Positions 7,164-40,039 are shown, counted from the first letter of the stretch. The stretch is DNA of 64,000 nt from Polyangia bacterium (GCA_044228505.1 JBGAUT010000014.1:14725-78724), one strand, 5' to 3'. Translations and numbers: made by a program. The notes: generated by a model not told the origin, from the letters alone.

Positions 7164-8831
7164 ATGAGCCGTCCACTTCTCACGCGTACCTTGGCCGGGG
7201 CCTTGCTTAGCCTGACGGCCGCCGCGTGCACCGCGCCACAGGTAGGAAGCCCGTGTCCGATTCCGACCAATGCTGACGCCAAGACCCGCACCGAAGCCGT
7301 CCAGAAGTGCTTCGGCCTGATCGCAGGAAATTCGAACGATTTCCGACTGAAGAAGGATGTGGACATCCTGTTTGTGATCGACAATTCACCGTCGATGTCG
7401 CCCAAGCAAAAGGCGCTCGCAGAGAACATTCCCAAGTTCATCGAGAAGATCGATAGTTTTGGCGTGAACTATCACGTCGGTATCGTCACCACCGATGTCG
7501 GAACCACGGTTTCCGATGGTGCCACCTGGGGCGCGGGCTCGGAGCCGTCGTGCGACAGCTTCACCGGTGACGATGGACGACTGCAAGACATAACCTGCGA
7601 CAAGCGCAACACCGTCTCTCCCGAGGCGGCCAACGCTTGTGCCACGCTCTGCCCGGACAACCGCTTTAAGCCGACTGATGGCAGCAAGTACATCTCCAAG
7701 GTCGACGGCAAGACCAACGTTCCAGCGGATCTGAAGCTCGATCCGATGACGGGCAAGATGGTCGACTACGGTCCCACCAACGCCTTCAAGTGTATGGCGC
7801 TCGTTGGTGATGCTGGCTGCGGCGTCGAAGGCCAACTTGAGGCGGTCAAGCGTGCGATCACCAACTCGGCCAACACCGGCTTCATCCGCGACAACTCGGT
7901 GCTCGCGGTCATCTTCATCACCGATGAAGACGACTGCTCGGTGAAGGCATCGCGACGGTCGGAGCTAAACCCCGGCTATCGCAACTGCAACGCCGCGCAG
8001 CCCGACTCGTACGACTGCTACAAGGTCGACTATCGCTGCATGGCCCGCTCGCTCACCTGCAACGAGCCGATGACGACTGCGGGCGGCAAGACTGGCTGCA
8101 AAGAACGAGCCGACAGCTTCCTTGAGCCGGTCAAGACCTACTACGACGAGCTGCTCAAAGTTCGCAAAGCGGACAAGCTCATCGTCAGCGGCATCTGGAC
8201 CTTGCCGAACATCGATGTTGCCAAGGGCGGCACGGTCGGCATCATCGGTGGCCCGCTCACCTCGGATCTACGCCGAGATCCAGCTTGCGTGAACTCCACC
8301 AACAGCGCCGTGGTTGGTCAACCGCAGTTCCGTATGTCGCAGCTTGCCAACATGTTTGGCAACGACACCGAAGGGCTTCCCAATGCGCCGCAGATGAACG
8401 TCTGCGACACCGCTAAGTATCCGGCGGCACTCGATGCCATCGCCAAAGCGGTCGAAAAGAAGCTGGTGCCCTGCCTGCCGATCACATTGAAGACCGTCAA
8501 TGGTCAGCCGATCTGTTTGGTCGGCGATGTCGATTCCACTACGCCCGACGCCAACCCCGAAAAGTACTTCCCGCTGTGTACTTCCGGCTGCTGCGAGGCC
8601 TGGGCCAGCACCTCGACGCCATCTCTCAGCGACAAGGGCATCCAGGCTGCTTGCGCGGGTGAAACGACCGAGGCCTGCTACTGTGCGATCAAGAGCAAGG
8701 ACGCGAGCGTCTGCAAGGCCGGCACGCCCGAAGGCGGCGTCAACGGCGGTGTCGTGACGGGTGTGTGGCGGAAGAACAACGCCAACCCGCCGGCTGGCAA
8801 GGTCGTAAACTTCCGCTGCGTCGGCTTCTAA
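7164..8831 (+). CDS. von Willebrand factor A (vWA) domain lipoprotein, Cys-rich
   Basis: Lipobox LTAAAC and MIDAS motif DILFVIDNSPSMS, with many Cys. GGGAGGA RBS upstream. Confidence 0.8.
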   Translation: MSRPLLTRTLAGALLSLTAAACTAPQVGSPCPIPTNADAKTRTEAVQKCFGLIAGNSNDFRLKKDVDILFVIDNSPSMSPKQKALAENIPKFIEKIDSFGVNYHVGIVTTDVGTTVSDGATWGAGSEPSCDSFTGDDGRLQDITCDKRNTVSPEAANACATLCPDNRFKPTDGSKYISKVDGKTNVPADLKLDPMTGKMVDYGPTNAFKCMALVGDAGCGVEGQLEAVKRAITNSANTGFIRDNSVLAVIFITDEDDCSVKASRRSELNPGYRNCNAAQPDSYDCYKVDYRCMARSLTCNEPMTTAGGKTGCKERADSFLEPVKTYYDELLKVRKADKLIVSGIWTLPNIDVAKGGTVGIIGGPLTSDLRRDPACVNSTNSAVVGQPQFRMSQLANMFGNDTEGLPNAPQMNVCDTAKYPAALDAIAKAVEKKLVPCLPITLKTVNGQPICLVGDVDSTTPDANPEKYFPLCTSGCCEAWASTSTPSLSDKGIQAACAGETTEACYCAIKSKDASVCKAGTPEGGVNGGVVTGVWRKNNANPPAGKVVNFRCVGF

Positions 8832-9088: not shown

Positions 9089-10756
9089 ATGCGACGTTCC
9101 CAACTCACTCTCTCGATTGCTGGGCTCGGTTCGGCCCTGCTGCTTTCCGCCTGCTCCTCTCCGCAGGTTGGATCGACCTGCCCGGTGCCGACGACGGGCG
9201 ACTCCAAAGCCAAGATGAAGGAGTTCAACAAGTGCTTTAGCCAGCTCGGCGAGAGCGTGGTTGATGCGCGGCTCCGCAAGGACGTCGACATTCTGTTCCT
9301 CATCGATAACTCCCCGTCGATGTCTCCGAAGCAGAAAGCACTTGCGTCGAACATCCCCAAGTTCATCCAGAAGATTGACGCCACGGGCGCGAACTACCAC
9401 GTTGGTATCTCGACGAGCGATATTGGTAGCAACGTCCAGCCGGGCGTGCCCTGGGGCGGCAACATCGGCAAGTGCGATAGCTACGAGGGTGACGACGGTG
9501 TGCTACAGGCCGTTCCTTGCACTACGCGCAACACCGTGACGCCCGATGCTCGCAACGCTTGCGCTCAGCTGTGTCCGGACGACAAGTTCGTGCCGACCGA
9601 TGGCCGTCGCTTCATCTCGAAGGTCGACGCGGTCACCAACGTGCCGGTCTCGATGGAAAAAGATCCGGTCACCGGCAAGATGATCGACACCGGCCCGATC
9701 AAGGCCTTCAAGTGTATGGCGCTCGTCGGTGACGACGGTTGCGGTATCGAAGGCCAGATGGAAGGTGCGAAGCGGGCGCTCGATGGACATCGCAGCGAAA
9801 ACTCCGGCTTCCTCCGCGCCAACTCGGTGCTCGCGGTGATCTTCATCACCGATGAAGACGACTGCTCGGTGCAGATGGCGAAGCGCGATCAGAACAACCC
9901 GAGCTACCGTGACTGTGACCCGACCCAGCCGGACTCACCCGAGTGCTACAACGTCGACTTCCGCTGCTTGGCTCGCTCGATCCAGTGTAACGAGTCGACG
10001 CTGACCACTGGCCCCAAGATTGGCTGCAAAGAGCGACCTAACAACTATCTCGAGCCCGTCGAGAAGTACTATCGCTTCTTTAGCAACCTGCGCTCGCCGA
10101 GCAAGCTGCTCGTCAGCGGCATCTGGACGCTGCCCCCGATCGACGGTGGTGGCAAGGTCGAGATTGCACGCGCCGGTGGCACCACCACCCCGAACCTGAA
10201 CCGAGCGGGCGGAGCCGGAGCGTCGTGCGTCTACGTCGGCGATCAGAGCGTCTACGGCCAGGCTCAACTGCGACTGTCGAAGTTCGCCAAGCAGTTCGGA
10301 ACCGATGCCAAGGGCCAGGCCAACGCGCTCGAAGTCTCGATCTGCGACATCGATAACTACCCGTCGGCGCTGGATCGCATTGCGAAGGCAATTGAGCAGC
10401 GGCTCCAGGCGCAGTGCTTGCCAGTCACGCCGAAGAACGATGCCAGCGGTAACCCGATCTGCATCGTGGGCGACGTCGACGAAGCCTCCCCCGCTAGCTC
10501 TCCAGATCCCGAGACGGCCTTCCCGGTCTGCTCGAAGACCTGCTGCAATGCGTGGGCCGCGACGAGCACGCCGACCCCGGGTGATGACTCGATCAAGAAT
10601 GCTTGCGGCGGCGAAGCCCGAGACTGCTACTGCGCCATCAAGAGCAAAGACCCGAACATTTGCAGCGACACCGTGGTTGCTGGAGTGTGGCGCAAGGGTG
10701 GCAGCCAGCCACCTCCGGGCAAGGTCGTCAACTTCCGCTGCGCTGGTGGCGGTTGA
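9089..10756 (+). CDS. vWA domain lipoprotein, tandem paralogue of 7164-8831
   Basis: Same length (555 aa) and architecture as the first copy. Lipobox LLSAC, MIDAS DILFLIDNSPSMS, and the shared C-terminus GKVVNFRC. GGAGG RBS upstream. Confidence 0.8.
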   Translation: MRRSQLTLSIAGLGSALLLSACSSPQVGSTCPVPTTGDSKAKMKEFNKCFSQLGESVVDARLRKDVDILFLIDNSPSMSPKQKALASNIPKFIQKIDATGANYHVGISTSDIGSNVQPGVPWGGNIGKCDSYEGDDGVLQAVPCTTRNTVTPDARNACAQLCPDDKFVPTDGRRFISKVDAVTNVPVSMEKDPVTGKMIDTGPIKAFKCMALVGDDGCGIEGQMEGAKRALDGHRSENSGFLRANSVLAVIFITDEDDCSVQMAKRDQNNPSYRDCDPTQPDSPECYNVDFRCLARSIQCNESTLTTGPKIGCKERPNNYLEPVEKYYRFFSNLRSPSKLLVSGIWTLPPIDGGGKVEIARAGGTTTPNLNRAGGAGASCVYVGDQSVYGQAQLRLSKFAKQFGTDAKGQANALEVSICDIDNYPSALDRIAKAIEQRLQAQCLPVTPKNDASGNPICIVGDVDEASPASSPDPETAFPVCSKTCCNAWAATSTPTPGDDSIKNACGGEARDCYCAIKSKDPNICSDTVVAGVWRKGGSQPPPGKVVNFRCAGGG

Positions 10757-16238: not shown

Positions 16239-16419
16239 GATCGCACGGACTTCGCCGCTGCTCAACAACTGCGGCTCCATCACCCTCCCTGTCCTAGCCG
16301 ACCGGCACGCCTTGCGACGGTACGCTGCGCCTTCAGCCACTCCAGCTTGCGACTTCCCGGCTCGTACGCGATGATCCGGGCGGGTTTTTCTTCGGGGCAT
16401 GCCCCTTGGGAGGTTGGTT

Positions 16420-18093
16420 ATGAATGAGCGCGGTAGTCGCAAGATTCCGGTTACTGAACGGCAGTTCCTGTGGGTTCAAGACGACGACAAGGGCGAGGTA
16501 ACGCTCCATGTTGGTCCAACGATGGTGTCACCGACCGCCGCCGATCGAGTCGTAATCGACGACGGTCAGGGCAGCTTCCGAGAAGACACCTCGGGCCGCC
16601 CCCAAATGATGATCGAAGTCGGCGATCATCAGTACGCCGTGCTGTTCAACCCGCTGCTCGAAAACGACGGCGGTCCCAATGGGCGGTTCCGAGTGGGTCG
16701 CAACGAAGCACGTCCACTCAAGAACGGTACGCGAGCAATGATTCCGGGACCATGCAGTTACTTTCTGCGCCCCGGACAACGCTGCGAGGTCCGCGATGCC
16801 CATGAACTATCTGCGAGTCAGTATCTGGTCGTTAAGGTGTACGGACCCGTCGATCGAACGGCACCCTACTTTGATGTAACGGCACGGTCTGCTGCGATCA
16901 CCCGAGCCACGGCAGAGGCACTCGATGGTCGTCCAACCCCGCTGCCTGAAAAGGGAATCGATCAAGAGCTGAAGCGCGGTCAGCTCATCGTCATTCGCGG
17001 CATCGATACCCAGTTCTACATTCCACCAACCGGCGTCGACATCGTTCCAGATACGTCGGTGGACGAATCGGGTGCCACGGTGAGTGCGACCACGGCACAG
17101 AAGCTGCTCCAGCAGATGCAAGCGCAGCTCACCAAGCCAGTGCTTCCGCCACCGCCACCTACTGCCAAAAAGGGAGCCATCAGCGAAGAAGAACAGCTTG
17201 ATCTGCGCAGCGAGGATGACGAGTCCCCAAGCGATAAAAGTCGATCTCCCAGGCGAGCAGTGGCCCAGTACCAAGCGGAAGCCGCCGCGCAGATGATCGA
17301 CCAGTCCGCACGCACCCGGCAAAGAGTGGCAGCCCCCGCGCCCGTTGCGCCTCAGGCCGGGCCACCGCGTCCAGCGGCGATGCCGCCACCTCCTGCACCC
17401 CCAGTATCCAACAACGCCGGATTTGCCGCACCAACCAACACCGCAGTCACTACCGTGTCTGTGGATGATGTGCTGTCTTCCGATGCACTCCGCAAGGCCA
17501 TCGAAAAAGAGGCACGTCAAGCGCGTCTTATTCGCAGCGCTGTTGTCCTGGGTGAAAAGGAATACTGCGTACTCATCGATCCGGATGGCAAGCGCGAGAT
17601 CAAGGTTGGCCCAGCTCGGGTCTTCCCTGGACCGTATGATACGTTTATGATCAAAGGCTCACGCAACCGTGTCTACGATGCCTATGAGCTTCTGCCGCAG
17701 CGTGCCCTGTGGCTGCGGGTGATTTCGCAGTCCGGACGCGAGGACATGGCCAAGAAGATGCCGCGTGGCGTCGAGTTAGAGAAAGAACAGTACTTCCCTG
17801 GCGATGAGCTGCTGCTGTGCGGAGTGTCCGGCTTCTTCTTTCCATTTAACGAGATCGAAGTCCTGTCCCCTCACACTGGCGAGGCAGTGGTTGGGAACGA
17901 TCACTCCAACGTCTTTATCGAAGCCATCGGAATCGATCAGAAGAGCGGCATCTGGTCACCTTGCGGATTGCGCGTCGCCCATTCCTATGAACTGAGTGTT
18001 CATCATCCATCGGTCATCCACGGCTCTATATCGCACCAATTCTCACCAGCGGTTGATGGCTGGCGCATCGCAACTGCCCTGTCATGCTCTTAG
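16420..18093 (+). CDS. major vault protein (MVP) homologue, N-terminal vault-repeat fragment
   Basis: Three blocks align to the eukaryotic MVP repeat region. [27 protein letters not shown] matches [37 protein letters not shown] matches [64 protein letters not shown] matches [64 protein letters not shown] RBS before the ATG at 16420. The last 47 aa are non-MVP tail after the att core. Confidence 0.7.
   Translation: [557 protein letters not shown]
17941..17953. repeat. left copy of the 13-bp direct repeat AAGAGCGGCATCT (att core)
   Basis: Identical 13-mer at 31311-31323. Flanking imperfect similarity GCCATCGGAAtcgatcag versus GCCATgCATCGGGAA. Confidence 0.5.
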
Positions 18094-18112
18094 GTACTTA
18101 CGGAGGATCACC

Positions 18113-18727
18113 ATGAAGAAACGAGCGCTTCTAGGACGAACGAACCCTAACCGCAGAGATTTACTCAAAGCCGGAGCAGGCATCCTGGGCGGACTGTCCG
18201 CCTGCACGGTGATCGGATCTCTTGGCAGTGCGCTGACCTCGTCGGGATGTGGAGCACTCCGTTTCGATATCAATCAGCCGATCCCCGAACAGAGGATCAT
18301 GGGCAACGTCCTCGCTGGTGTGCTTGGCGCATTCCTGCCCACTCCATTTTCTTTGCCCATCAACCTGGAACAGGAAACCAAGTCACATGGCACCGGCCCT
18401 GCCCAGTCAGCGGGTCTCACCGCACTGTCGTTTAAGCTGACCAACATTCCCAATCCACCGCGCAGTAGCGACAATTTTGACTTTGTCGATCGCATCGAAA
18501 TCTATGTGGAAAGTGTGAAATCTGGCACTGCTCTCACCAAGCAGAAGGTGGCCGATCTGCTGAGCGTTCCAAAGGGAGCGACAAAGCTGAACTTGCAATG
18601 CTATCCCAACGTGGACCTAGTCCCCTACATCAACGAAGGGGCGAGGATCAGCTCGACAGCATCTGGACGTGTTCCGAGCAACGACATCACGTTCGATGGT
18701 CTGGTTACGATCGAAGTACGTGTCTGA
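18113..18727 (+). CDS. Tat-signal lipoprotein of unknown function
   Basis: Twin-arginine motif NRRDLLKAG and lipobox LSAC. GGAGGA RBS before the ATG at 18113. Confidence 0.6.
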   Translation: MKKRALLGRTNPNRRDLLKAGAGILGGLSACTVIGSLGSALTSSGCGALRFDINQPIPEQRIMGNVLAGVLGAFLPTPFSLPINLEQETKSHGTGPAQSAGLTALSFKLTNIPNPPRSSDNFDFVDRIEIYVESVKSGTALTKQKVADLLSVPKGATKLNLQCYPNVDLVPYINEGARISSTASGRVPSNDITFDGLVTIEVRV

Positions 18728-18803
18728 CGAATCGGGTTCTCACACCTCGGCTAGGTCAGCCACCGAAGACTCCGTGATACTCTGACAACACGGAGAAAGT
18801 CTG

Positions 18804-19997
18804 ATGCAGCATCTAGTGCCTCCCAAGCTGGCCAATCTCTTACATCCAAATGCGAACCATGTAGAGGCCAAGCCACCGACTCTGACCGAGCATCACAAAG
18901 CTGCCGATGGTCTTCATCCAGCAACTGGTGGCATCAATGCTCAAGCTCACCAGGGAACCGTGTCACCCGAGGCCAATCAGCAAGCGGCCAAGACGTTGGA
19001 GCACTTTGCGGACCCGAAGCCAGCAGGGGCTGGCGCACAAGTCGCTCCCAAGACCGCGGGGCTGTATCCTGGAGTGACCGATCTAACCGGAACGTACGGA
19101 AAGCTCGCAGCAGGAAAGCGAGCCGATACGCAAGGTGTCGTCCTTCACCGTACAGAGACGGCTACCGCACAAGGTGCCCTCAACGCATACAATTCACGGA
19201 TCAAAAATGGCGAGCATGTTGGTGCGCAGTACTTGATCGATGAAGTGGGCAAGACCAGTCTGGTCACGCCTGCGGACTCGCTCACGTACCACTCGAAGGG
19301 ATTCAACAGCTCTACCGTTGGCGTCGAAGTAGTTGGTCCCGGAGTTCACTTGGATCGCTCCGGGAAGGGCAAGTCTGTGCGGCAGCAAGTCACGGATCTC
19401 AATCTGTCCCCAGAATTTCAATCACGACTCCTTGGCTACAAGGACAAGCAGTTAGACAACGTCGTCAAATGGAATGGCGACACGATCTACGAAGACATCA
19501 GCGGCAAGCAGAAGCGCTCGGTGTGGAACCTCTCGAATCAGCTTGCGAAGACCTATAATTTGGATATGTCGTCGCTGTCTCATCACGGAAAGGATGAATC
19601 GGGAAGCAACAACTACTCTCCGCAGAACTTTCCGGACTTCTCTGCTCATGAACACTTGAATCCCAAGGCGCTCGGCGAAGGCGAAGCCATCACAGAGTTC
19701 CTGCAAGCGCGTCAGCAGTATCCCCAGATGGTTGCAGCAGCCCAAGAGAAGCTGGCCAAAGCGCAGGCAGCCGGTGCAACTCCGGAACAACTCAAGCAGC
19801 AGCAAGCCATCTTGCAGCGTGAGCAAGCGACTTTGGGAGCGCTGAATCTCGATGGCGATCCTCATGAACAGGAACTCCTGGCGGCAGAACAGAAGTCGGG
19901 TAAGCCAGGCGAAGCTACACAGCGCGAAAACCTCCGTACGGAGTACTATGACGACTTTTATGACCGGATGGCCGAGCTAAAGGGAATCGTCAAGTAG
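18804..19997 (+). CDS. Amidase_2/PGRP-domain protein without a signal peptide, with a coiled-coil C-terminus
   Basis: Motifs VVLHRTE, GAQYLIDEVGKTSLV, VGVEVVG and FSAHEHL resemble the N-acetylmuramoyl-L-alanine amidase fold. About 110 aa of disordered N-terminus. Visibly lower GC than surrounding genes. Confidence 0.55.
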   Translation: MQHLVPPKLANLLHPNANHVEAKPPTLTEHHKAADGLHPATGGINAQAHQGTVSPEANQQAAKTLEHFADPKPAGAGAQVAPKTAGLYPGVTDLTGTYGKLAAGKRADTQGVVLHRTETATAQGALNAYNSRIKNGEHVGAQYLIDEVGKTSLVTPADSLTYHSKGFNSSTVGVEVVGPGVHLDRSGKGKSVRQQVTDLNLSPEFQSRLLGYKDKQLDNVVKWNGDTIYEDISGKQKRSVWNLSNQLAKTYNLDMSSLSHHGKDESGSNNYSPQNFPDFSAHEHLNPKALGEGEAITEFLQARQQYPQMVAAAQEKLAKAQAAGATPEQLKQQQAILQREQATLGALNLDGDPHEQELLAAEQKSGKPGEATQRENLRTEYYDDFYDRMAELKGIVK

Positions 19998-20033
19998 ACC
20001 CCCACTTGCCGAGGATATCCACCGAGGGCAGGT

Positions 20034-20717
20034 ATGATTGACAGAGAGCGAGAAGACGTACTGCTGAAGCAGGCCGTGGCACGAGGACTCCTCGATGCAG
20101 AGGATGTCTCGACCTTGCGAAATATGCCTCAGGCAGTGGGCTCGACCCTACGTTTTGGACCCCGTCTTGACCGATTGGTGGAGCAGGGAAAGCTATCAGA
20201 AGGACAGCTTGAACGACTCTCTGCAGAACTGGCAGCGTTTGAACGTACACTCGACGGGAGAGCGGAGTCTGTCTCGTCCGCTTCACCAACAGAAAGAGTC
20301 TCGGTTCAGCTACCGCCGTGGCTTGTACAGTGGTCCCAGTACGAGGTGTTGGGACTGCTTGGTCAAGGCGGCATGGGCATGGTGTATCGAGCCCGCGACC
20401 GGCGCTTGTCAAGAGAGGTCGCACTGAAGTTCATCAGCGTAACTGATGATCAGCTTCGCAAACGATTCCTGACCGAAGCCCGTGCCCAGGCCAGGCTCAA
20501 TCACGAGTTCATCTGCAAAGTCTTCGAAGTAGGAGAAGTTCAGGGACACCCCTACATCGCCATGGAGTTGGTGCAGGGCAAACCGCTGTCAACGATACAC
20601 CGCAGCCTCAATCGCGAACAAAAGCTCACCCTCGTGAGAGACATTTCCCATGCAGTCCACACCGCCCACAGCTTGGGAATCATCCACCGAGACTTAAAGC
20701 CGGCCAATGTGTATTGA
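20034..20717 (+). CDS. Ser/Thr protein kinase, N-terminal fragment (subdomains I-VIb), interrupted
   Basis: GQGGMGMVY glycine loop, VALK lysine motif and HRDLKPANV catalytic loop. The frame stops immediately after the catalytic loop. Confidence 0.7.
   Translation: MIDREREDVLLKQAVARGLLDAEDVSTLRNMPQAVGSTLRFGPRLDRLVEQGKLSEGQLERLSAELAAFERTLDGRAESVSSASPTERVSVQLPPWLVQWSQYEVLGLLGQGGMGMVYRARDRRLSREVALKFISVTDDQLRKRFLTEARAQARLNHEFICKVFEVGEVQGHPYIAMELVQGKPLSTIHRSLNREQKLTLVRDISHAVHTAHSLGIIHRDLKPANVY
20699..20710. repeat. 12-bp direct repeat GCCGGCCAATGT (second copy at 23658-23669) flanking the insertion in the kinase gene
   Basis: Identical 12-mers encode PANV at the end of the N-terminal fragment and again at the start of the C-terminal fragment. 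The flanking sequence is imperfectly similar. Confidence 0.45.
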
Positions 20718-20911
20718 TTGATTTTGTAAATTCAGCGTGGGGCAAGACATACCGTTCGCAGCGTTGGGAATGTCGGTGGGAAGGTGGCATTGGGGTTGGA
20801 TGTCATGAGTTCTGCCACTCAGTGGCGACCGGAGGCTGCTCTGCCATCGAGGAGCTGTACTATCAAGAGCCGCGTCTCTCCACTTTTGATATAGTTGGTG
20901 TAGGGGGTTCC

Positions 20912-21313
20912 ATGCGTGTTATGTCGGGTCGTGTTGGACGTGTGATAAGTACGCTGGCGGTGTTCGTCCTGCTACCGCTGTCTGCCAAAGCTGAGCCCGT
21001 TGGGAACGTGGTAAACAGCGCCAAAGCCGTGGCCACCAAGGTTGTCCCTCTCGCCAAAAAGGCAGCACCAGTGGCGAGCAAAGCCGTTCAGACCGTGCGC
21101 GGCAACGGCAGTGCACCGGCCACCGCACCTCAGCAGGCACAAGCTGCGCCCTCTGGCCCCGCGCAGCCACAGGCCAGTCCGTCCATTCAGGATCAGGCCG
21201 TGGGAGTCCTACGCAGCGCGGCGGCAGGAGTGAAAGGCCCAGCCGCTTCCCCGCCAGCCTCCGCACCGAGTCCTGCTCCTCGCGGCGCACCTCCGGGCGC
21301 ACCTCCCGGATAG
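20912..21313 (+). CDS. small secreted Ala/Pro-rich protein
   Basis: Signal peptide MRVMSGRVGRVISTLAVFVLLPLSAKA followed by a low-complexity A/P/Q-rich region. Confidence 0.4.
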   Translation: MRVMSGRVGRVISTLAVFVLLPLSAKAEPVGNVVNSAKAVATKVVPLAKKAAPVASKAVQTVRGNGSAPATAPQQAQAAPSGPAQPQASPSIQDQAVGVLRSAAAGVKGPAASPPASAPSPAPRGAPPGAPPG

Positions 21314-21347
21314 AAACGACCACAACGGCATCGAGTCCCCAGCCCGA

Positions 21348-22106
21348 CTACGGAACAAACGGAGTCCACATCGAGGCGAGCCAGCTCTGCGGACGATGGT
21401 TGGATATTCCCAGCGGATACTCTTTACCAGTAGGTACCTCATGCGTGCCAAACACGATGTCCAGCCAGGGCGCAAGGTTGCCAAAGTTGGTGAGTCCGTG
21501 ACCTCGTGCGTGATGCCAGTGGTGCAGCTCGGGAGACCCCAGTAGGTAGCGAAGCGGACCGATTGGAAGTCGAACATTCGAGTGAATGAAGATCGCCCAC
21601 ATACCGCGAAACACCGCGAGCCCAGCCAGTCCTCCCATTGGCACGCCAAGGAGAATGGCCGGTAGATTCTGCATCAGCTGAGTCAGCATCCCGTCCACAG
21701 GGTGCTCTCTGTGTGCGGCCAGCCAGTCGAGATGCTCGCTGCTGTGGTGAACCGAATGAAATCGCCACAGCAAGTTCGAGGCATGACACGCACGGTGAAA
21801 CCAATAGACCAGCACATCGCCGAGCACCACTGAGCCAAGGAACAAGACGATCTTCGGCGCTGAAATGAAAGGCTTCGTTCCCAAGTGCGCGGTGACAAAT
21901 CGCAACAGAGAGATCGACAGCACATTCCACAGAAGGTACTGACCGAAAAAGTACGCCGCATCCGTGACCAAGGCTGGACGAAAAATCGGCTGTTGCCGAG
22001 CAGGAAAGAGTCTCTCTAACGGAACAAAGACCGCAATCAAAACCACCAAGCTCGCCAGCGCGGCGCTCAGCCAAGACTGTGCAGACGAGATCAGCTCGCT
22101 CATCAC
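21348..22106 (-). CDS. fatty acid hydroxylase / sterol desaturase superfamily membrane enzyme
   Basis: His boxes HRACHA, HSVHHSSEH and HHWHHA, with multiple TM helices. Overlaps the upstream small gene by 4 bp. Confidence 0.65.
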   Translation of the reverse strand: MMSELISSAQSWLSAALASLVVLIAVFVPLERLFPARQQPIFRPALVTDAAYFFGQYLLWNVLSISLLRFVTAHLGTKPFISAPKIVLFLGSVVLGDVLVYWFHRACHASNLLWRFHSVHHSSEHLDWLAAHREHPVDGMLTQLMQNLPAILLGVPMGGLAGLAVFRGMWAIFIHSNVRLPIGPLRYLLGSPELHHWHHARGHGLTNFGNLAPWLDIVFGTHEVPTGKEYPLGISNHRPQSWLASMWTPFVP

Positions 22107-22423
22107 TTGGCCTGTTGCTGAACTGGTTCCGGAGTCTTCCTGGCAGATGGCGACGGGAGGAAGACGGCTGCAGATTTGGATGCCCCCATGAATCGATTGG
22201 GAATCTCTGGCTCCGGTGAAGCGGGTGCTGGGGGTGGCGGGGGTGGAGCAGGCTGCACAGTCGGGGGTGGCGATGGCTTGACAGACTGCGGCGGAGCCGA
22301 CTGGGACTTCCCGTCAGACTGCTTCGTACTACAACCCGAATCCTCACGCGATGCATTGCTGGTGAGCATCGCGACGACTCCAACTGCAAAGACCAAGGAC
22401 AGCGCTCTGAGAACGGTTCGCAT
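22103..22423 (-). CDS. small secreted proline-rich protein
   Basis: Signal peptide and a PPPPPPAP tract. Its stop overlaps the downstream start (ATGA). Confidence 0.4.
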   Translation of the reverse strand: MRTVLRALSLVFAVGVVAMLTSNASREDSGCSTKQSDGKSQSAPPQSVKPSPPPTVQPAPPPPPPAPASPEPEIPNRFMGASKSAAVFLPSPSARKTPEPVQQQAK

Positions 22424-22477
22424 GACAGCTCCGAGTTAGTGAATGAGACAGTGAACGCGTTGACCAAAGGATTGGGT

Positions 22478-23482
22478 CTAGTGATTCCTCCGCACCAGTC
22501 CGCGCAGACGGTGAACATCGATCATTCGCGACATGCCTTCGCCTCCCGCAGTCGCCCAGGAAGCAAAGATCTCCGCACAATGAAGAGCCCATGATAGCAG
22601 AGTCTGCCGAATCTGTTGATCGGACGCGCTACCACCCATCTGAGCGGCTGCTGACTCACAGATTTGCATCCGGGCAGTCATGCCACCATCCGGATCATCC
22701 GGATCGTCTTCAGGATAGGCAGCAGAAAGCAGAGCTTTGGCTTCCTCCTGCTGATCCTTGCGCAGTAGCTCGATGAGTTGATCGCGCACGGCGTGATAGC
22801 GCTCCTTGGCAGCCACCGCAGCTCGATCCATCCTGGCCAGCACTGCGCGAGCAATCTGCAGGGTCATCGCGGCCGATTCGCCCTTCACCACTGACACTTT
22901 CTGGCAGATACGCTCGACCCGTTGACGAAGGTGCTGTCCGGACTCCGCCACCGCGTAGAGCGCCGTCAAAGCGACTGCAAGCTCCGCTCCCGATGGATCC
23001 CCATCCAGGTGACGCGCAATCGCGTGAAGTGAGGCAGCGCGCAGCTCACGCGGCACAGTGGGCATACGTGCCACCAGTTGAAGCGTCAGAAACTGCGTCG
23101 GTTCTTCGGTTCGAGAGAGCGCATCACGAAGCTCTGCAACAAGATTGGGCCGCACAGCAAGCCGTGTCTGTGCCACTCGCAGAGCCACCGGATGCGTACA
23201 GGACAACACCGTACCGAGAACCTCCGCAAGCGTTGCATCCGTAGGAAGACTTGCCGCCTTGCGCACCTGCTGCGAGGCCTCTTCGGAAAGCTCCAGCCGC
23301 AGCAGGCCGATCGGACCAGACTCCCCTGCCACAGGCTGTCCCGCGACAATGGTGCCGCAAAGAGAGCAACACAACAGCACCAAGTCGGGTGCCGACACTT
23401 GAAGCTGTAGTCCTGTCGCGGGGCAAGCACACGCTAGCGGCGTATCTAACGACAGGATCTCAGCAGCGGGGGATGCAGACAT
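22478..23482 (-). CDS. hypothetical protein
   Basis: Long ORF with no recognisable motif. The ORF runs to 23584 but the start was placed at MSASPAAE. Confidence 0.4.
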   Translation of the reverse strand: MSASPAAEILSLDTPLACACPATGLQLQVSAPDLVLLCCSLCGTIVAGQPVAGESGPIGLLRLELSEEASQQVRKAASLPTDATLAEVLGTVLSCTHPVALRVAQTRLAVRPNLVAELRDALSRTEEPTQFLTLQLVARMPTVPRELRAASLHAIARHLDGDPSGAELAVALTALYAVAESGQHLRQRVERICQKVSVVKGESAAMTLQIARAVLARMDRAAVAAKERYHAVRDQLIELLRKDQQEEAKALLSAAYPEDDPDDPDGGMTARMQICESAAAQMGGSASDQQIRQTLLSWALHCAEIFASWATAGGEGMSRMIDVHRLRGLVRRNH

Positions 23483-23634
23483 ACTCTGGTTATCATACCC
23501 CTTTCGAGAAAAACAGATCGACGATTCAGCCAGTCCTTCACCCAGTGCTCGCGTCCGTGAGTACCCGCCTCCGCTTTGCCGCACAGTACCATTTCCCCAC
23601 CTCTTTCAGTCGGCCTCAGGGAAGAGTGAAGGCT

Positions 23635-24297
23635 ATGCTCGACTTGGTCGAGATTGAGCCGGCCAATGTCATGATCGTAGAAAAGGAGGATGGCACCCTC
23701 CGTCCAGTGGTCATGGACTTTGGACTCGCACGAGATCAGAGCAGTGAAGAGCACCTCACCATGACCGGGATGGTCATGGGCACTCCTGCCTATATGTCTC
23801 CTGAACAAGCCCAAGGAGAGATCAGCCGGATTGATCGTCGCAGCGATGTCTACAGCCTGGGAGCCATGCTCTACGAGCTGCTGTCTGGTCAACTTCCCTT
23901 TGCGGGAGCAACAACGGTGGCGATGATCCTGCAGGTCATTCAGCAGGAGCCGCCCCCACTGCGCAAAGTCAACGCAGAGATTCCCATTGATCTAGAAACC
24001 ATCGTTGCCAAAGCGATGGCCAAGGAGATTCAGCGGCGCTACGACACGGCCCGTGCTTTCGCAGAGGATCTCGAGCGATTCCTAAACGGAGAGCCGATCC
24101 TCGCACGCAAAGCGTCGATACTTTATGTGGCGCACCCGAAGCCAATATCGCGCCGTCCCAAACCAACCATCACTCCTGCCGGTGGGATGTATGCGGGAAT
24201 CGGTCATGTCAGAAAACGGACCAGGCCCTGCGAGCGGTTGCCAATCAAGGCGCTGGAACTTCCTTTACGGACACTTCAGCAGTGGAGCAATCGGTGA
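23635..24297 (+). CDS. Ser/Thr protein kinase, C-terminal fragment (subdomains VII-XI)
   Basis: MDFGLAR (the DFG motif) and GTPAYMSPEQ (the APE motif) follow PANVMIVEK. AAGG sits 4 nt before the ATG at 23635. The open frame further upstream overlaps the opposite-strand gene and is judged spurious. Confidence 0.65.
   Translation: MLDLVEIEPANVMIVEKEDGTLRPVVMDFGLARDQSSEEHLTMTGMVMGTPAYMSPEQAQGEISRIDRRSDVYSLGAMLYELLSGQLPFAGATTVAMILQVIQQEPPPLRKVNAEIPIDLETIVAKAMAKEIQRRYDTARAFAEDLERFLNGEPILARKASILYVAHPKPISRRPKPTITPAGGMYAGIGHVRKRTRPCERLPIKALELPLRTLQQWSNR
23658..23669. repeat. second copy of the 12-bp direct repeat GCCGGCCAATGT
   Basis: See 20699-20710. Confidence 0.45.
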
Positions 24298-25785
24298 GAC
24301 CGGAGCCACCCCCATTGCAGAAGTCATGGTGTCGTAGCTCGACAGGTTACTGGTTAAGACTCCCACTATCTCTGCGTAGGTCTGATTGAGCTTGTTGGCT
24401 GTTGAGCTCTCTGCAACGCACAGAAACTTGGTGGTGCCGCACAGAGGAATCTCTTCACAGCCAGGATTCGCCGGGGCCGCCACCTTTAGTTCCAGCGTTC
24501 CGTATAAGGCGCGTCCGTCGACCATCACCAGATCGACATCGACAGGCGAAGCGGAAAGCAGTGCATCATAGGGTTGTCCGGCATCACCCCGGAACAGTAC
24601 CAAATCTGCACGCTTGCCAACTTCGAGGGTACCAAGCGCAGCGTCCACTCCCAGCGCACGAGCCGCATCTACCGTCACCATTTCAAACAATCGGCGCGTA
24701 GTAAGAAGTCCGTTAAACTTACTGTCGCTCACCTGCCGTGCAACCTTCAATTCATCCAGCAGATTGACACTGCCTCCCAAAGACCAGTCTGGCGCAAGCG
24801 CAATGGTATTCACCCCCGCCATCATCGCCAGATCAATCCGAGTGGTGTCATTGTACAAAAACAGATTCGACTTCGGTGACCAGATGAGCTTCATTCCGGC
24901 AATGCCCATCTTGGTAAACTCGGGAGCCCCGAGCGCGGTACCATGGACGATGGCCGTTTGAGGGGCCAACAGACAGCCACTGGCGCGACTCTCTAGCGTG
25001 GCAAACTCATTTCTGGCCGTGGCATTGATACCTTCGGCCACATGCACGGCGTAGGCATTGGCTGTACCGGCTGTAAACGCATTGCAAATGGTTTGTGCGG
25101 CGGCGGAGTTGTTTGGGACAGAAATGGCCGTTCGCAATCGATCGACTCCGAGATCATTGCGCGAAGTATCAATCGTCCTTGCCAAGGACTCATAACAAGC
25201 CAGCTCCACCGCCCCAGGAGCGAGCGTGAACGAAGTGGTGCCGGCAATCAGGGCCTTGATCTCTGCGTATTTGTCGATCTCACACCGCAGATCCACCGGT
25301 GAGGTGACGTCTTTGTTGAGATACTGTTTGGCGTCCAGAACCTGCTGATAGCGAACGTCGGAGGTCCAGTCATTGTGACTGCCGTAGAACCTGCCCGGAC
25401 TCCAGTCTGCTTCATCGAAAATGTTAAAAAGACCATGATTATGGCCATCGAGCATTCCCGGCATGATCACCCCAGAGGTAGTGATCACCGTGGCACCGCT
25501 TGCGGCGGGTAGAGACGAACACGAGTCCGCTACGCAGGTGATGTTCGCTCCTTCGACCAGCAGTTCCCCTCGCAGGGGACCACCTGGAGTAAGCATCACT
25601 CCGCGCAGAAGGAATCGATCGGTAGCCCCAGGCACAATCGAGGGAGGCAGCCAGTTCCCGCCATCTTGAGTCATGGACATCATGTCCGCTCCCAGATCGC
25701 TCTCTGTGCTTCCATCGCTGCGACAGCCCAAGTAGGCCAAACATCCAGATAACAGTAGTGCCTGGATCTGCTGCTGCCAACGCAT
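24265..25785 (-). CDS. amidohydrolase-family lipoprotein
   Basis: Lipobox LSGCLAYLGC and metal-binding motif PGMLDGHNH. Confidence 0.7.
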   Translation of the reverse strand: MRWQQQIQALLLSGCLAYLGCRSDGSTESDLGADMMSMTQDGGNWLPPSIVPGATDRFLLRGVMLTPGGPLRGELLVEGANITCVADSCSSLPAASGATVITTSGVIMPGMLDGHNHGLFNIFDEADWSPGRFYGSHNDWTSDVRYQQVLDAKQYLNKDVTSPVDLRCEIDKYAEIKALIAGTTSFTLAPGAVELACYESLARTIDTSRNDLGVDRLRTAISVPNNSAAAQTICNAFTAGTANAYAVHVAEGINATARNEFATLESRASGCLLAPQTAIVHGTALGAPEFTKMGIAGMKLIWSPKSNLFLYNDTTRIDLAMMAGVNTIALAPDWSLGGSVNLLDELKVARQVSDSKFNGLLTTRRLFEMVTVDAARALGVDAALGTLEVGKRADLVLFRGDAGQPYDALLSASPVDVDLVMVDGRALYGTLELKVAAPANPGCEEIPLCGTTKFLCVAESSTANKLNQTYAEIVGVLTSNLSSYDTMTSAMGVAPVSPIAPLLKCP

Positions 25786-26079
25786 GGTTCCCCCTCTTGC
25801 TCTGGGTTGTGCGCAGCCGAACTGCCTGCCTCCTAGAGCGCCCCAGGATCGCTCTGCGCGATTACGCCGAATCTCTCACAGTAGCCGGAGTCCTTTCGAT
25901 CTGGCGAGAGCAAACCGCACACCCTACACTCTATGGTCGGCGGCTCATACTCCGCCTACAGCTGGTACCGCTACAGAGCCCCTTGCTCCTTGCTCTATGA
26001 GTAGCGGTCAGCGGGAGCATGCCTCGCTCTACAAAATCAGTATCGAAGCCTTACTCCTCGACGACATATTGGAGAGAAC

Positions 26080-27255
26080 ATGACCAGTAAGTACGTACTC
26101 GTGGCTCCGCTCGTCCTTCTTACGGCGGTCGGATGTCGTAATGAAAACACCGACAATCAGTCCGACCTCATGATGACCCCGGATGACATGTCTGTGGCAG
26201 AAGATCTGAGCGGTTTGCCGGCAGACCTTTCCGCACCCGACCTAACTGGTGCCGATCTGCTGCCTCCGCCACCGCCCGCAGATTTCTTTGTGGTCCGAGT
26301 GGGAGACGGAACCGCCGCACTCACCAGTGCCGCTACCGCAACGTTCCTTGAGCGTCGCAAACTCAGTGATGGAAGTCTGGTCGGCACAGCATTGGCTCTG
26401 CCCACTGCCGTCAGCGGCACCAATCGCATCTTGACCATGGGAGGTAGCTCGACCGGCGAGGGAGGACTTAGTCGTTCGGTCGATGGTCGCTATCTGCTGG
26501 TAGCCGGCTACGATGCCGCCGTGGGAACTGCCTCCGTTGCGGGTACGGCATCCGCCACCACCAGCCGCGTCATCGGACGCATTGATAGCACCGGCACGAT
26601 CGACACCAGCACAGCCGGTGACTTTCTCAGCGGCAACTCCATCCGCAGCGCCAGCAGCAACGATGGAAAAGACCTCTGGGCCGCAGGTGCAGGAGGAATT
26701 TTCTACACAACCTTTGGGAGTACTGCCAAGCCGACCTCTCTGCTCACGACCAACTTCCGTTGGCTGCACGTATTTGGCACGCAACTGTACGGTAGCAGTG
26801 GTTCCGGCACCAACGCCGGTATCAACAGCGTCGGAAGCGGCACGCCGATGACCACAACCACCGCGACTCTGCTAAATGGCTTTGCGGCTCAGATCGGTTC
26901 GTCTCACTACGGCTTCGTTGGATTCGACACAGATGGTCTGGCTGGAATCGACATTCTATACGTTGCCGACGACCGGGCGGCCGGTTCCGGCGGCGGAATT
27001 CAGCGATGGAAGCTAAACGGAGCCACCTGGACACTCCAGGGGACGATGGTCAAGAACTTAACCGCAGGAGTGCGCGGACTGACCGGCTATCAGCAAGGCA
27101 ACAACTCCGTGCTGTTCGCCACCACCGCTGAAGTTCCAGCGCGTATCGTTCGATTCACCGATGACGGCACCGCGATTGATATGCTGACTCCTACGGCCCT
27201 GGCCACAGCGTCAAACAACACCGCGTATCGCGGAATCGCGCTGGCACCGCAGTAA
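26080..27255 (+). CDS. lipoprotein, Gly/Ser/Thr-rich, unknown function
   Basis: Lipobox LTAVGC. No recognisable catalytic motifs. Confidence 0.55.
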   Translation: MTSKYVLVAPLVLLTAVGCRNENTDNQSDLMMTPDDMSVAEDLSGLPADLSAPDLTGADLLPPPPPADFFVVRVGDGTAALTSAATATFLERRKLSDGSLVGTALALPTAVSGTNRILTMGGSSTGEGGLSRSVDGRYLLVAGYDAAVGTASVAGTASATTSRVIGRIDSTGTIDTSTAGDFLSGNSIRSASSNDGKDLWAAGAGGIFYTTFGSTAKPTSLLTTNFRWLHVFGTQLYGSSGSGTNAGINSVGSGTPMTTTTATLLNGFAAQIGSSHYGFVGFDTDGLAGIDILYVADDRAAGSGGGIQRWKLNGATWTLQGTMVKNLTAGVRGLTGYQQGNNSVLFATTAEVPARIVRFTDDGTAIDMLTPTALATASNNTAYRGIALAPQ

Positions 27256-27344
27256 CCCACACCACTATCGGAGCGCCACTTCCCCGGCTCGACGCGACTT
27301 CGCTGGGGAACACGCAAGCCACTTCTCGACGGCTTGGTGATGAT

Positions 27345-28505
27345 GTGGCGTACAAGCGCGCTCAGAAGCACAAAGCGGTGGTCGCGGTGTCGGTCTTGTG
27401 CGTGATGTCCGTCATAGCACTCCTGCTGGTCTTTGTCCGTGGCCGGGTGCTCGCCGCAAGAGAGCGCGAGCGCACCGACAGACAAGCCGCTCTGTCTCGG
27501 CAGCTTGGGCAAGACATCACTCAGATGGAGCTGTTCATGCGCGCAGCGTACATGTTGCCTGCCCATGACATCCGCAGAGAAAGCGCCGTGGTACGCGACC
27601 GGATGCGGAAAATCACAGAGCAACTCAATACGCTCGAAACAGACCTTCGTGGACCTGCCCACTACGCACTCGGTCGAGGACACCAAGTCCTTCAGGAGTA
27701 CGAAGAAGCGCGCAAGCAACTGGAAACGTCTCTGTCCGTAGGATACGACCGTCCGGAGGTCCACTATACGCTGGGACTCGTGCTAGGACAGCTGTATCAA
27801 AAGGGAATTGCTGAAAGCCGCAATGAGGTCGACCCGCAGCGTCGCAAAAAGCAGCGGATGAAGCTCGATGCCGAGCTGCTCACCGCGACACGTGCTCACT
27901 TGGAAAAGAGCGCGGGCACCCAGCTCGACTCCGCAAAGCTTATTGAGGGATGGCTTCACTATTATCAGGACAACGAGCAGAAGGCCCGACAAGCCGCGCA
28001 AGCCGCCGAAGCAGAAGCTCCTTGGGATTACCAGCCCGTGCTCCTCCAACTTACCATTGCGCGTAGGAAGGCAGACTCTCTGTACTTTCAAGGAAAAGTA
28101 AGCGAAGCCGCGACCACAGATCGACAAGTGGAGGCACTCCTAGATCAGCTAACAGAGATGGCCCGGAGTCTTCCGATCGTTTACTACGCACGGGTAGGCT
28201 ATCTTCGGGACCGACTGTTCCAAGATCTCTTTGAATACCGTGATATGGATGCACGCTTCGACAGCCTGATGGCTGCGCTCGACCGGCTTCGGGTGGTGTC
28301 GCCCAACAGCACCTACGTGTTCACCGAAAAGGCTGCGGCTTACGCTTATTTTGCGCGCCAAAAGTTGGTGCGCGGTGAAGACCCTCGTCCCGCTGCCAAA
28401 CAAACTGAGGCGGCGCTAGCAGAAGCGGAACAAGCAGGTGTTCCCAGCGGGCAGCTCGTCATTGTTCGCAATACAATCAATCGCAGTATGCTCGTCGAGC
28501 ATTAA
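27345..28505 (+). CDS. membrane-anchored helical-repeat protein
   Basis: GTG start and one N-terminal TM helix. The remainder is alpha-helical and repeat-like. Confidence 0.45.
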   Translation: MAYKRAQKHKAVVAVSVLCVMSVIALLLVFVRGRVLAARERERTDRQAALSRQLGQDITQMELFMRAAYMLPAHDIRRESAVVRDRMRKITEQLNTLETDLRGPAHYALGRGHQVLQEYEEARKQLETSLSVGYDRPEVHYTLGLVLGQLYQKGIAESRNEVDPQRRKKQRMKLDAELLTATRAHLEKSAGTQLDSAKLIEGWLHYYQDNEQKARQAAQAAEAEAPWDYQPVLLQLTIARRKADSLYFQGKVSEAATTDRQVEALLDQLTEMARSLPIVYYARVGYLRDRLFQDLFEYRDMDARFDSLMAALDRLRVVSPNSTYVFTEKAAAYAYFARQKLVRGEDPRPAAKQTEAALAEAEQAGVPSGQLVIVRNTINRSMLVEH

Positions 28506-28544
28506 GGTCGATTGCCCTCTCGGGGAATCGTATCGGAAACGAGA

Positions 28545-38981: not shown

Positions 38982-40039
38982 CCGCCACTGCCCTCCGCTG
39001 GCTCGTCCTTAGCAGCGTACTATTCACCGTCGCTTGCGCGACCTTCTGGGCCAAGATCGGCGGGGGCGACTCGATCAAGGCTCCACACAGCGTGCATGCC
39101 CGCGCAAAGATCGACTGCCTAGTGTGTCACGAGTCCATCTATGACGCGACGAATCTCAAAGGAGACTTCCTTCCCAAGGAACAGAAGTGTCTGGAGTGCC
39201 ATGAGGACAACAAAAAGAGAGGCGAGTGCGGTTACTGTCACACCGACGTAACTAGGCCCACTTCCTATCGTCGTGAACCCTCGACTCTCAAGCTGTCTCA
39301 CGCCAAGCACATTGAGCTGACCAAAGAGGACTGCTCGCGCTGCCACAAGACGCTTTCCGATCGCAACCAGCCGGCAGTCTCGCCGACCATGGACTCCTGT
39401 CTGGACTGCCATCCCCATCGACAGCAGTACGATCAGGGGTCGTGCGCCACCTGTCACAAAGATTTGAAGCGCTATCCCCAGAAACCGATCACGATGTTTT
39501 CGCATCAAGGCAACTTCGTGACCGGACATGCTCGGCCTGCACGATCTTCGCCAGAAAGTTGTGCGACCTGCCACGAACAGACCTTCTGTGCAGACTGTCA
39601 CAGTAGGACCGTCCTCGGACCGATTGAGCTGAAATTCCCCGAACGAGTGGACAGTGATCTGATTCATCGGGGCGACTTTTTGGGACGACACAGCATTGAA
39701 TCACGCGCCGATCCGGCCTCTTGTCTGCGCTGCCACGGAACCAGCTTCTGTGAAAACTGCCACAAGCAACAGGGAGTCAGCGGTCGCAGTGACAACCCCC
39801 GCAACCCACATGCGCCGGGATTCACGATTCCGAACTCGCCACAGTTTCACGGGCTTGCGGCACGACGAAATATCTCAAGCTGTGCAAGTTGTCACGATCA
39901 GGGGCCGCGCTCGAACTGTGTCAACTGTCACAAGGTCGGCGGACTCGGTGGAAATCCGCACCCACCTGAATGGACCGAGCGCCACGACCGTCAAGAGATC
40001 CTGAGAAACGGCATGTGTCGGTACTGCCACACTCCGTGA
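38978..40039 (+). CDS. periplasmic or membrane-anchored multihaem c-type cytochrome with 13 CxxCH motifs in 353 aa
   Basis: Thirteen CxxCH motifs and an N-terminal hydrophobic segment with FTVAC. Confidence 0.8.
   Translation: MTATALRWLVLSSVLFTVACATFWAKIGGGDSIKAPHSVHARAKIDCLVCHESIYDATNLKGDFLPKEQKCLECHEDNKKRGECGYCHTDVTRPTSYRREPSTLKLSHAKHIELTKEDCSRCHKTLSDRNQPAVSPTMDSCLDCHPHRQQYDQGSCATCHKDLKRYPQKPITMFSHQGNFVTGHARPARSSPESCATCHEQTFCADCHSRTVLGPIELKFPERVDSDLIHRGDFLGRHSIESRADPASCLRCHGTSFCENCHKQQGVSGRSDNPRNPHAPGFTIPNSPQFHGLAARRNISSCASCHDQGPRSNCVNCHKVGGLGGNPHPPEWTERHDRQEILRNGMCRYCHTP

Follow-up and report, generated by a model that had tools for sequence, protein, structure and literature searches.

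Can a kinase gene that is interrupted by other genes still be a working gene? This question is raised by a Ser/Thr kinase gene in a 64-kb stretch of DNA from a Polyangia bacterium (GCA_044228505.1, JBGAUT010000014.1:14725-78724), the whole of which we refer to as the window. An original prediction from the sequence alone described one kinase gene split by a single four-gene insertion between short direct repeats, with no transposase or recombinase. The split, the repeat, and the recombinase-free insert are all real. However, the finding is richer than first described. The kinase has three repeat-flanked insertions and is in four pieces, it belongs to an integrase element, the insertions are old, and nearly identical intact copies exist. 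The prediction missed all of these.

A kinase gene in four pieces

The N-terminal open reading frame (ORF), 20034-20717, stops after HRDLKPANVY (its tail reads GIIHRDLKPANVY and then a stop). The ORF on the C-terminal side reads EIEPANVMIVEKEDG, followed by DFGLAR and GTPAYMSPEQ (over a longer stretch, VEIEPANVMIVEKEDG, DFGLARD, and GTPAYMSPEQ). These fragments tile one protein. The N-terminal fragment covers positions 1-129 of the Pfam Pkinase profile and the C-terminal fragment covers 124-254. When they are rejoined through one repeat copy, the domain aligns end to end with Mycobacterium tuberculosis PknB (1mru; 1-271, E 1e-52), including GIIHRDLKPANVMIV opposite GIIHRDVKPANIMIS. The core of a Hanks-type Ser/Thr kinase (PF00069) is then complete, with GxGxxG, VAxK, HRDxKxxN, DFG, and (A/S)PE in one colinear domain. 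The break is just 3' of the catalytic loop, as first described, and in the PknB alignment this falls within the core of the C-lobe, with the catalytic loop on one side and beta7 on the other. Alignment to intact orthologues also makes the fragments one kinase. Distant orthologues on three related contigs (L017, L018, and L019, ~57% amino acid identity) are single, uninterrupted chromosomal genes rather than two independent genes.

The prediction gave the flanking repeat as a 12-mer. The 12-mer GCCGGCCAATGT has exactly two copies in the 64-kb window (20699-20710 and 23658-23669), and there was no match to it in 100 shuffles. The repeat is genuine at both junctions, but its identity is one base longer, 13 bp rather than 12. 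The insert, ins1, is 2,946 bp between the repeats (2,959 bp counting one copy) and has four ORFs.

The predicted end of the feature, 24297, does not mark where the kinase stops. The kinase ORF meets a second insertion after 24135, and then it continues at 27343 and at 29188. The pieces, repeats, and modules are as follows.

20034..20710, + strand: kinase fragment A, with the N-extension, N-lobe, and catalytic loop HRDLKPANV (Pkinase profile 1-129; the ORF continues to 20717)
20698..20710, + strand: repeat 1, left copy, AGCCGGCCAATGT
20711..23656, both strands: module ins1, 2,946 bp, four ORFs (Pfam/NCBIfam)
20909-21313, + strand: ins1 Ala/Pro-rich ORF
21348-22106, - strand: ins1 FA_hydroxylase (PF04116), OlsE-like
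22103-22423, - strand: ins1 Pro-rich ORF
22478-23584, - strand: ins1 368-amino-acid ORF with no family match
23657..23669, + strand: repeat 1, right copy, AGCCGGCCAATGT
23670..24135, + strand: kinase fragment B, the C-lobe (DFG, SPE) as far as ARKASILYVA (Pkinase profile 124-254)
24125..24135, + strand: repeat 2, left copy, ATGTGGCGCAC (perfect 12-mer TATGTGGCGTAC in L001)
24136..27342, both strands: module ins2, 3,207 bp, amidohydrolase and lipoprotein-like ORF
24265-25785, - strand: ins2 amidohydrolase
26080-27255, + strand: ins2 391-amino-acid lipoprotein-like ORF
27343..27353, + strand: repeat 2, right copy, ATGTGGCGTAC
27354..28471, + strand: kinase fragment C, with the juxtamembrane segment, transmembrane helix, and first part of the helical/TPR-like tail
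28461..28471, + strand: repeat 3, left copy, ATTGTTCGCAA, 11 bp
28472..29187: module ins3, 716 bp, with a 4HBT/YciA-like thioesterase (PF03061) at ~28545-29036 on the - strand
29188..29198, + strand: repeat 3, right copy, ATTGTTCGCAA
29199..30054, + strand: kinase fragment D, the end of the tail

Repeat 2 has the consensus ATGTGGCG[C/T]AC and is 11-12 bp long. Deleting all three modules and keeping one copy of each repeat gives a 3,117-nucleotide ORF, free of stops and frameshifts, for a 1,038-amino-acid kinase that has a transmembrane helix and ends in a long helical, TPR-like tail. The joints are also seen in relatives, because fragment C is continuous with B in L003 and L011 and with D in L001. 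Pfam and NCBIfam scans found no transposase domain in the four ins1 ORFs and no recombinase domain in the scanned ORFs of ins1, ins2, or ins3, which agrees with the prediction for ins1. We found no terminal inverted repeats on ins1 and no terminal inverted repeats or shared termini among the 13 ends of ins1-3, the insert of the relative L009, and the extra elements of L003, L011, and L008 (see below).

Element E, its host gene, and its relatives

The kinase is part of a tyrosine-integrase element, here named E, at 17954-31323 with 13-bp att cores. E in turn lies within a host gene. These features are as follows.

16399..17953, + strand: host gene, N-terminal part, 518 codons
17941..17953, + strand: attL core, AAGAGCGGCATCT
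17996..18727, + strand: orf243 (204 amino acids in compact units), no family match; present in the L027 compact unit and in L002/L003
18804..19997, + strand: Amidase_2, N-acetylmuramoyl-L-alanine amidase family (PF01510)
30051..31304, - strand: tyrosine recombinase (integrase; PF00589, phrog_1), which converges on the kinase and overlaps the kinase stop codon
31311..31323, + strand: attR core, AAGAGCGGCATCT
31323..32702, + strand: host gene, C-terminal part, Vault repeats and major vault protein (MVP) shoulder (PF11978, PF17795)

Amidase_2 is directly 5' of the kinase in every locus that reaches upstream of fragment A, and the integrase was found in every E unit. A protein search recovered intact kinases of 1,038-1,039 amino acids on contigs L026-L032, in units with the order orf204, Amidase_2, kinase, and tyrosine integrase. 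Without its three modules, E of the window is 6,466 bp. The compact unit, from wastewater metagenomes, is 6,467 bp. L026 is a tandem array of divergent E units (X, Y, and Z), and the unit junctions of L026, L027, and L032 are exactly the left side of attR, the core AAGAGCGGCATCT, and the right side of attL. L032 closes on itself with a 127-nucleotide overlap at the expected attP junction. L027 also appeared to be a circle, but its self-closure runs through a 777-nucleotide block common to neighboring tandem units, which explains it. This leaves the L032 closure as the sole possible evidence for a circle. The block is identical within otherwise 94%-identical amidase genes of neighboring units (L026 4687-5464 and 11154-11931), and it is a clear gene conversion tract.

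E has the features of a tyrosine-integrase element: an integrase at its end, identical att cores, and a joined attP-type junction. Searches of viral, plasmid, and phage collections matched E only in the integrase catalytic core. E is a small, previously undescribed integrative element with an integrase, a kinase, and an amidase. The contexts of integrase homologues gave no specific link between the integrase and the split kinase. The homologues form a large ordinary family, the L024 context is unrelated, and in L023 other cargo accompanies the orthologous integrase at this host site.

The host gene is MVP-like, with Vault repeats and an MVP shoulder, and E interrupts it in the middle of its coding sequence. 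Joining 16399-17953 to 31323-32702 gives a 977-amino-acid ORF without a stop. An intact homologue, P0360 (957 amino acids), reads FIEAIGIDQKSGIYVRDL uninterrupted across the junction, and most proteins homologous to the C-terminal part have a length of 850-1,000 amino acids, with the match starting at ~residue 490. The insertion point is the conserved peptide IGIDQ-KSGI-YVRDL, of which the att core encodes KSGI, and E provides an ATG at 31299 for the C-terminal part. Both halves have low ratios of nonsynonymous to synonymous substitution rates (dN/dS, or omega), 0.01-0.07 at synonymous divergences (dS) of 0.8-1.7, and all of the genomes compared have an integrase element at the site. These ratios point to very strong purifying selection on the two halves. 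For the N-terminal part, omega was 0.06 against L002, L001, and L023, and for the C-terminal part it was 0.01-0.04. On the features tested, E in the vault-like gene fully fits the definition of a gene-interrupting integrative element, integrase included.

The source organisms are uncultured Myxococcales, and wastewater metagenomes account for at least two of the read sets that contributed. Related contigs have ins1, ins2, and ins3 at the same junctions in several lineages. For ins1, looking for the cassette in relatives found it at orthologous junctions in L003, L011, L020, L021, and L001. Nucleotide identities to the window and module contents are as follows.

L003, ~93%: ins1 and ins3 present, ins2 absent
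L020, ~85%: ins1 and ins2 present, the contig ending short of the ins3 site
L021, ~83%: ins1, ins2, and ins3 present, none absent
L011-L016, ~83%: ins1 and ins3 present, ins2 absent
L001, ~78%: ins1 and ins2 present, ins3 absent

The ins2-free L003 and L011-L016 have exactly one copy of repeat 2. The modules have diverged as much as the element around them. For three lineage pairs, dS of the FA hydroxylase was 0.17, 0.56, and 0.90, and that of the amidohydrolase was 1.13 against L001. The flanking E genes in the same pairs gave 0.27 and 0.89 (amidase) and 0.37, 0.72, and 1.18 (integrase). Omega was 0.03-0.25 for all module genes (0.07-0.25 for ins1 and 0.08 for the amidohydrolase against L001), compared with 0.13 for orf243 and 0.08-0.13 for the integrase in the E backbone. 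Module dS matches the dS of the flanking genes in every lineage pair, and judging from these divergences and omega values, the modules are old, vertically coinherited, and functional.

The four kinase pieces are constrained as well. Comparing the window with L001, which both have ins1 and ins2, NG86 omega was 0.069 for the kinase part of A, 0.071 for B, 0.125 for C, and 0.166 for D (dS 0.9-1.5). Values against L003, L011, and L009 were similar, and the overall ranges were 0.036-0.069, 0.06-0.08, 0.09-0.13, and 0.17-0.24, respectively. On the window branch, polarized with an outgroup, synonymous changes numbered 57 and nonsynonymous changes 18, and the ratio within the kinase domain was 14:1. 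These values indicate that all four pieces are under strong purifying selection. The repeat 1 copies have fared differently. The right copy is 13/13 identical in the five related lineages with ins1, including 8 nucleotides that are noncoding in the split state, and in 3/5 of them the left copy is decayed at its dispensable 3' end.

In three lineages, compact or partly emptied copies have backbones 99.5-100% identical to those of interrupted copies. L021, with ins2, and L012, with one repeat copy, are otherwise identical over 2,012 and 1,133 nucleotides. L026 unit Y is identical to L003 over 1,597 nucleotides and differs from it at one position in another 1,819, and it is without ins1, ins3, and a further 3-kb element that L003 carries. 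L032 is 99.5-99.8% identical to L001 and is without ins1 and ins2. L026 unit X is intact and 97-99% identical to the L011/L021/L020 group. Chromosomally integrated copies of E are interrupted in 4/4 lineages with a visible position, and all closed or tandem units (three lineages) are intact. On the sequences, module-free forms must apparently have been regenerated repeatedly, because compact and interrupted forms interleave in the tree while the modules are ancient. A 1-kb contig, L007, had also seemed to prove excision. It ends in adapters on both sides and comes from compact unit Y, and we downgraded it.

Site 1 has been hit more than once. L009 is a sister (95-96% nucleotide identity) of the intact L017 and has an insertion with unrelated cargo at the same 13-nucleotide target as ins1. 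This insert, at L009 6644-9568, is recent; it has three secreted or lipoprotein ORFs and the repeat AGCCCTCTA. We rejected it as the same ancient insertion, given its sister and its different cargo. Because L009 was hit independently at the same 13 nucleotides, and both of its repeat copies carry its own codon variants, site 1 is a specific target, with repeats that behave like genuine target duplications.

Some other features of the kinase and its relatives are of interest in their own right. A second insertion hotspot is at the His-Arg codons of HRD (window ~20685-20691). Elements there include one of 3.08 kb in L003 (2753-5831) with a 7-bp repeat, CACCGGG, a variant with a Resolvase-domain ORF in L002 (10121-13363), and at least 5.6 kb of unrelated DNA in L011 (1-5592) and L021. 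L008 (1008-1389) matches the window at 99.4% identity up to this hotspot, where the two diverge. In L015 (4123-8326), from a more distant metagenome-assembled genome (MAG), an element that carries a ParA-like gene and encodes a large serine recombinase interrupts the orthologous kinase at GTPAYMSPEQ, and the N-terminal kinase piece (residues 1-163) is downstream of the C-terminal piece. A 24-nucleotide noncoding box, GGGAATGTCGGTGGGAAGGTGGCA, is ~55 nucleotides inside the left end of ins1 (window 20766-20789) and is nearly invariant in the window, L003, L020, L011, and L001, with variable surroundings. At position 4 of repeat 3, the window has G in both copies, L003 has C in the left and G in the right, and L011 has C in both. 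These differences may have been left by conversion or by a cycle of excision and reintegration, or they may be due to chance. Finally, an orthologue of the ins3 4HBT thioesterase is directly downstream of the kinase on the + strand in the uninterrupted L017 and L019 (layout amidase-kinase-4HBT, with no integrase homologue found in the retrieved flanks) and in L009, which is uninterrupted at this site. Because the orthologue adjoins the kinase on the other strand in these relatives, ins3 looks like a local relocation of a neighboring gene into the kinase tail.

Proposed reversible interruption and its rivals

We favor the explanation that precise and reversible removal of the modules regenerates the kinase, like a nested form of regulated gene integrity, and we give it a probability of roughly 0.45. 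Element E, of ~6.5 kb (orf204/243, Amidase_2, kinase, and integrase), sits in the vault-like host gene between its 13-bp att cores. Three old, recombinase-free modules have colonized the kinase, the largest of its genes, and each has an 11-13-bp duplication of kinase sequence at its ends. Recombination between the two copies of a repeat would remove the module precisely, leave one repeat copy, and restore an active 1,038-amino-acid membrane kinase. As long as the modules stay in the integrated copy, selection would preserve all four pieces together with the repeats. The arrangement would then work like skin in sigK, the elements in nifD and hupL, and gin in gerE, nested at two levels. A site-specific recombinase would perform the excision. 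The E integrase is the only candidate in view, and we can only conjecture that it might act on the modules. Kinase function would need this rejoining, because fragment D has no plausible start codon (the first is a TTG at 29206, without a Shine-Dalgarno-like sequence) and fragment A of L003 has lost the catalytic DLKPAN codons (Asp, Lys, and Asn) to another insertion. The asymmetry of repeat 1 is consistent with a crossover in its 5' part.

Several points weigh against reversible removal. The evidence as a whole comes from metagenome contigs and MAGs. The modules have no recombinase, and there was no convincing motif common to the three repeats, the E att core, and the module ends, so that no enzyme can be assigned to them. 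(Resemblances among the three repeats and the att core were loose and gapped and were not used. A TCGAC/GTCGA motif near 3/6 module ends, against 0.19 expected per end, was post hoc with p of ~0.06 and was dropped.) Entry of the modules was site specific and left a target duplication of 11-13 bp; the cargo is arbitrary and the ends are undefined. We found no circle junction of a module, and occupied and empty forms are not known from one sample. Module-free copies are mostly without all modules at once, which fits a separate, coevolving compact copy as well as it fits excision. Also, gene conversion among E units is directly visible, and homologous exchange with an intact copy could, by itself, yield both the empty sites and the low omega.

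That last point leads to the strongest rival, which we consider a serious but rather unlikely explanation. The interrupted kinase might be dead and undergo concerted evolution, being corrected by recombination or gene conversion from selected intact E copies in the same genome or population. The apparently precise losses would then be templated replacements. Tandem arrays of divergent units exist (L026), the 777-nucleotide tract lies in one of them, and each interrupted lineage has a close compact counterpart. L003 and unit Y are a mosaic, 100% identical from B through int and 96.4% in the amidase and the 5' part of A. However, the 64-kb window has one kinase copy with no tandem unit at attL or attR, and a genome scan recovered one locus per MAG. 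Between lineages, backbone dS equals module dS, so mobile compact copies did not homogenize the backbone. Conversion would be expected to treat the edges of homology alike, but repeat 1 is perfect in its right copy and decayed at the 3' end of its left copy. Finally, the host vault-like gene is single copy and is likewise preserved in pieces. For these four reasons, we favor excision, rather than copy correction, as the likelier source of the module-free copies. If concerted evolution is nevertheless true, then this locus is a clear natural example of gene conversion that keeps a broken gene healthy looking over a dS of ~1, and it is a caveat for function calls that are based on dN/dS.

A more far-reaching form of reversible removal, which seems unlikely to us, is hierarchical programmed DNA elimination in a myxobacterial lineage. 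The modules, between their pointer-like repeats of 11-13 bp, would leave the kinase, and then E would leave the vault-like gene. This would be a nested developmental or conditional switch that needs no element-encoded recombinase.

Gene fission is improbable. In this case, the pieces would be translated separately and assemble noncovalently, and only insertions at permissive sites with a usable start would survive. That would explain two independent hits at one spot (ins1 and the L009 insert). It would also agree with the constraint on every fragment, the conserved native ATG 3' of repeat 1, and the GTG within repeat 2. However, the cut is inside the C-lobe core, and function would be needed in four fragmentation patterns (window, L003, L011, and L001), including an L003 fragment A without its catalytic codons and a fragment D without a good start. 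The conserved noncoding half of the right repeat copy would also be unexplained. The prediction had proposed that the C-terminal fragment has its own AAGG-ATG start and might be expressed separately. This is weakened because the start, at 23636, is present only in the window and its 93% relative. At its position, there is an in-frame TAG in the L011, L020, and L021 lineages and no ATG in L001.

Recent insertional inactivation by a transposon with target-site duplication, leaving a decaying pseudogene, is very improbable. Direct repeats do surround inserts in a coding sequence, and the fragments have junk tails. However, ins1 is orthologous across lineages at dS of ~0.9, the inserts have no transposase, terminal inverted repeats, or common ends, and 3.1 kb of coding sequence has no frameshift or stop and omega of 0.04-0.24. 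We consider this reading refuted by dN/dS and by the codivergence of the modules with the backbone. An assembly artifact or chimera at a short repeat is almost inconceivable even with metagenomic data, because independent ENA, NCBI, JGI, and Logan assemblies from different assemblers have the same junctions and a 13-bp repeat is far shorter than assembly k-mers.

The rest of the window adds some context. It has no other split kinases or transposases, and a promoter and terminator scan gave counts no higher than those of shuffles. A cluster of MtrC/MtrF-like and c7-type multiheme cytochrome genes is at 33546-40039. L023 has the same synteny from the MVP gene to a cyclase, and no multiheme cytochrome genes were called in its corresponding interval. 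Tandem 555-amino-acid paralogues with Cys-rich C termini and no family match are at 7164-8831 and 9089-10756, and ORFs of 519-555 amino acids are at the corresponding position in L001 and L023.

Comparison with known systems

Most classes of interrupting DNA can be set aside. For integron cassettes, integron-integrase models scored 63 and 36 bits against cutoffs of 265 and 435, and cassettes here would be multigene and on both strands. The inserts are also unlike inteins or self-splicing introns, because they are out of frame and have genes on the opposite strand. There was no Rfam family or structured element in 19500-31500 (E up to 1), which leaves RNA-level explanations without a match. Many PADLOC models of PD-T4-6, a kinase-based anti-phage defense, matched the kinase, but only at residues ~100-370, as they would any Hanks kinase. 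Such generic kinase-domain matches do not by themselves indicate membership in a defense system.

IS4-family transposons make 10-13-bp target-site duplications. The 11-13-bp duplications here are similar, and the L009 copies carry host codon variants. However, the modules do not belong to an insertion sequence or transposon. There is no transposase domain, no terminal inverted repeats, no ends common to five independent inserts (no shared termini among 13 element ends), and two independent events occurred at one target.

cis-Mobilizable elements (CIMEs) and the accretion of integrative elements have been described for the ICESt1/ICESt3 family of Streptococcus thermophilus. CIMEs resemble the modules in being segments flanked by att repeats, without an integrase, that the integrase of a related element could move in trans, and tandem accretion is seen in L026. 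In contrast, the ins1-3 repeats are dissimilar to the E att core, and the modules are inside a coding sequence at three sites.

The internal eliminated sequences of ciliates also split coding segments, with short direct pointer repeats of which one copy is kept (PMC5182062, PMC1805493). They are eukaryotic and genome-wide and depend on domesticated transposases or RNA guidance (PMC5182062, PMC1805493), whereas here a single gene has inserts with functional genes. We regard this resemblance as an analogy only.

In regulated gene integrity, gene-intervening elements include skin in sigK and SPbeta in spsM of Bacillus subtilis, those in Anabaena nifD, fdxN, and hupL, gin in Bacillus cereus gerE, and those in Calothrix nif genes (PMC7192596, PMC5595907, PMC4191935, bioRxiv 10.1101/2023.12.11.571196). 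gin is a recombinase-only element (PMC5595907). In Calothrix NIES-4101, the nif genes are in 13 parts, and each recombinase gene is near the terminal repeats of its element (bioRxiv 10.1101/2023.12.11.571196). There are differences from these cases. The kinase modules have no recombinase, although E itself does, with its integrase beside attR. The interrupted kinase is on a mobile element rather than on the chromosome proper, and the modules carry ordinary genes for metabolism and the envelope, which are under purifying selection. In those systems, the element is excised in living cells, often of a defined type, and the gene becomes active again. Here, the sign of excision is indirect, with empty sites in backbones 99.5-100% identical to the occupied ones.

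We know of no case of gene integrity in Myxococcota. If it is reversible, this would be the first such switch known to us in that phylum, which has true multicellular development. It would also be a nested switch, with three splits in a gene of an element that itself splits a host gene. Inner elements without a recombinase are not anticipated from the known cases. E uses conserved coding motifs as landing sites, and it is a platform that accumulates ordinary metabolic genes.

Even though the inner modules differ in encoding no recombinase of their own, regulated gene integrity is the nearest described class for the whole arrangement. In both, a coding sequence is interrupted by multigene DNA between short direct repeats, the interrupted gene stays under selection, and several elements can share one gene or cluster. 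In both, a deletion that leaves one repeat copy restores the frame, here to a 1,038-amino-acid kinase ORF and a 977-amino-acid vault-like ORF.

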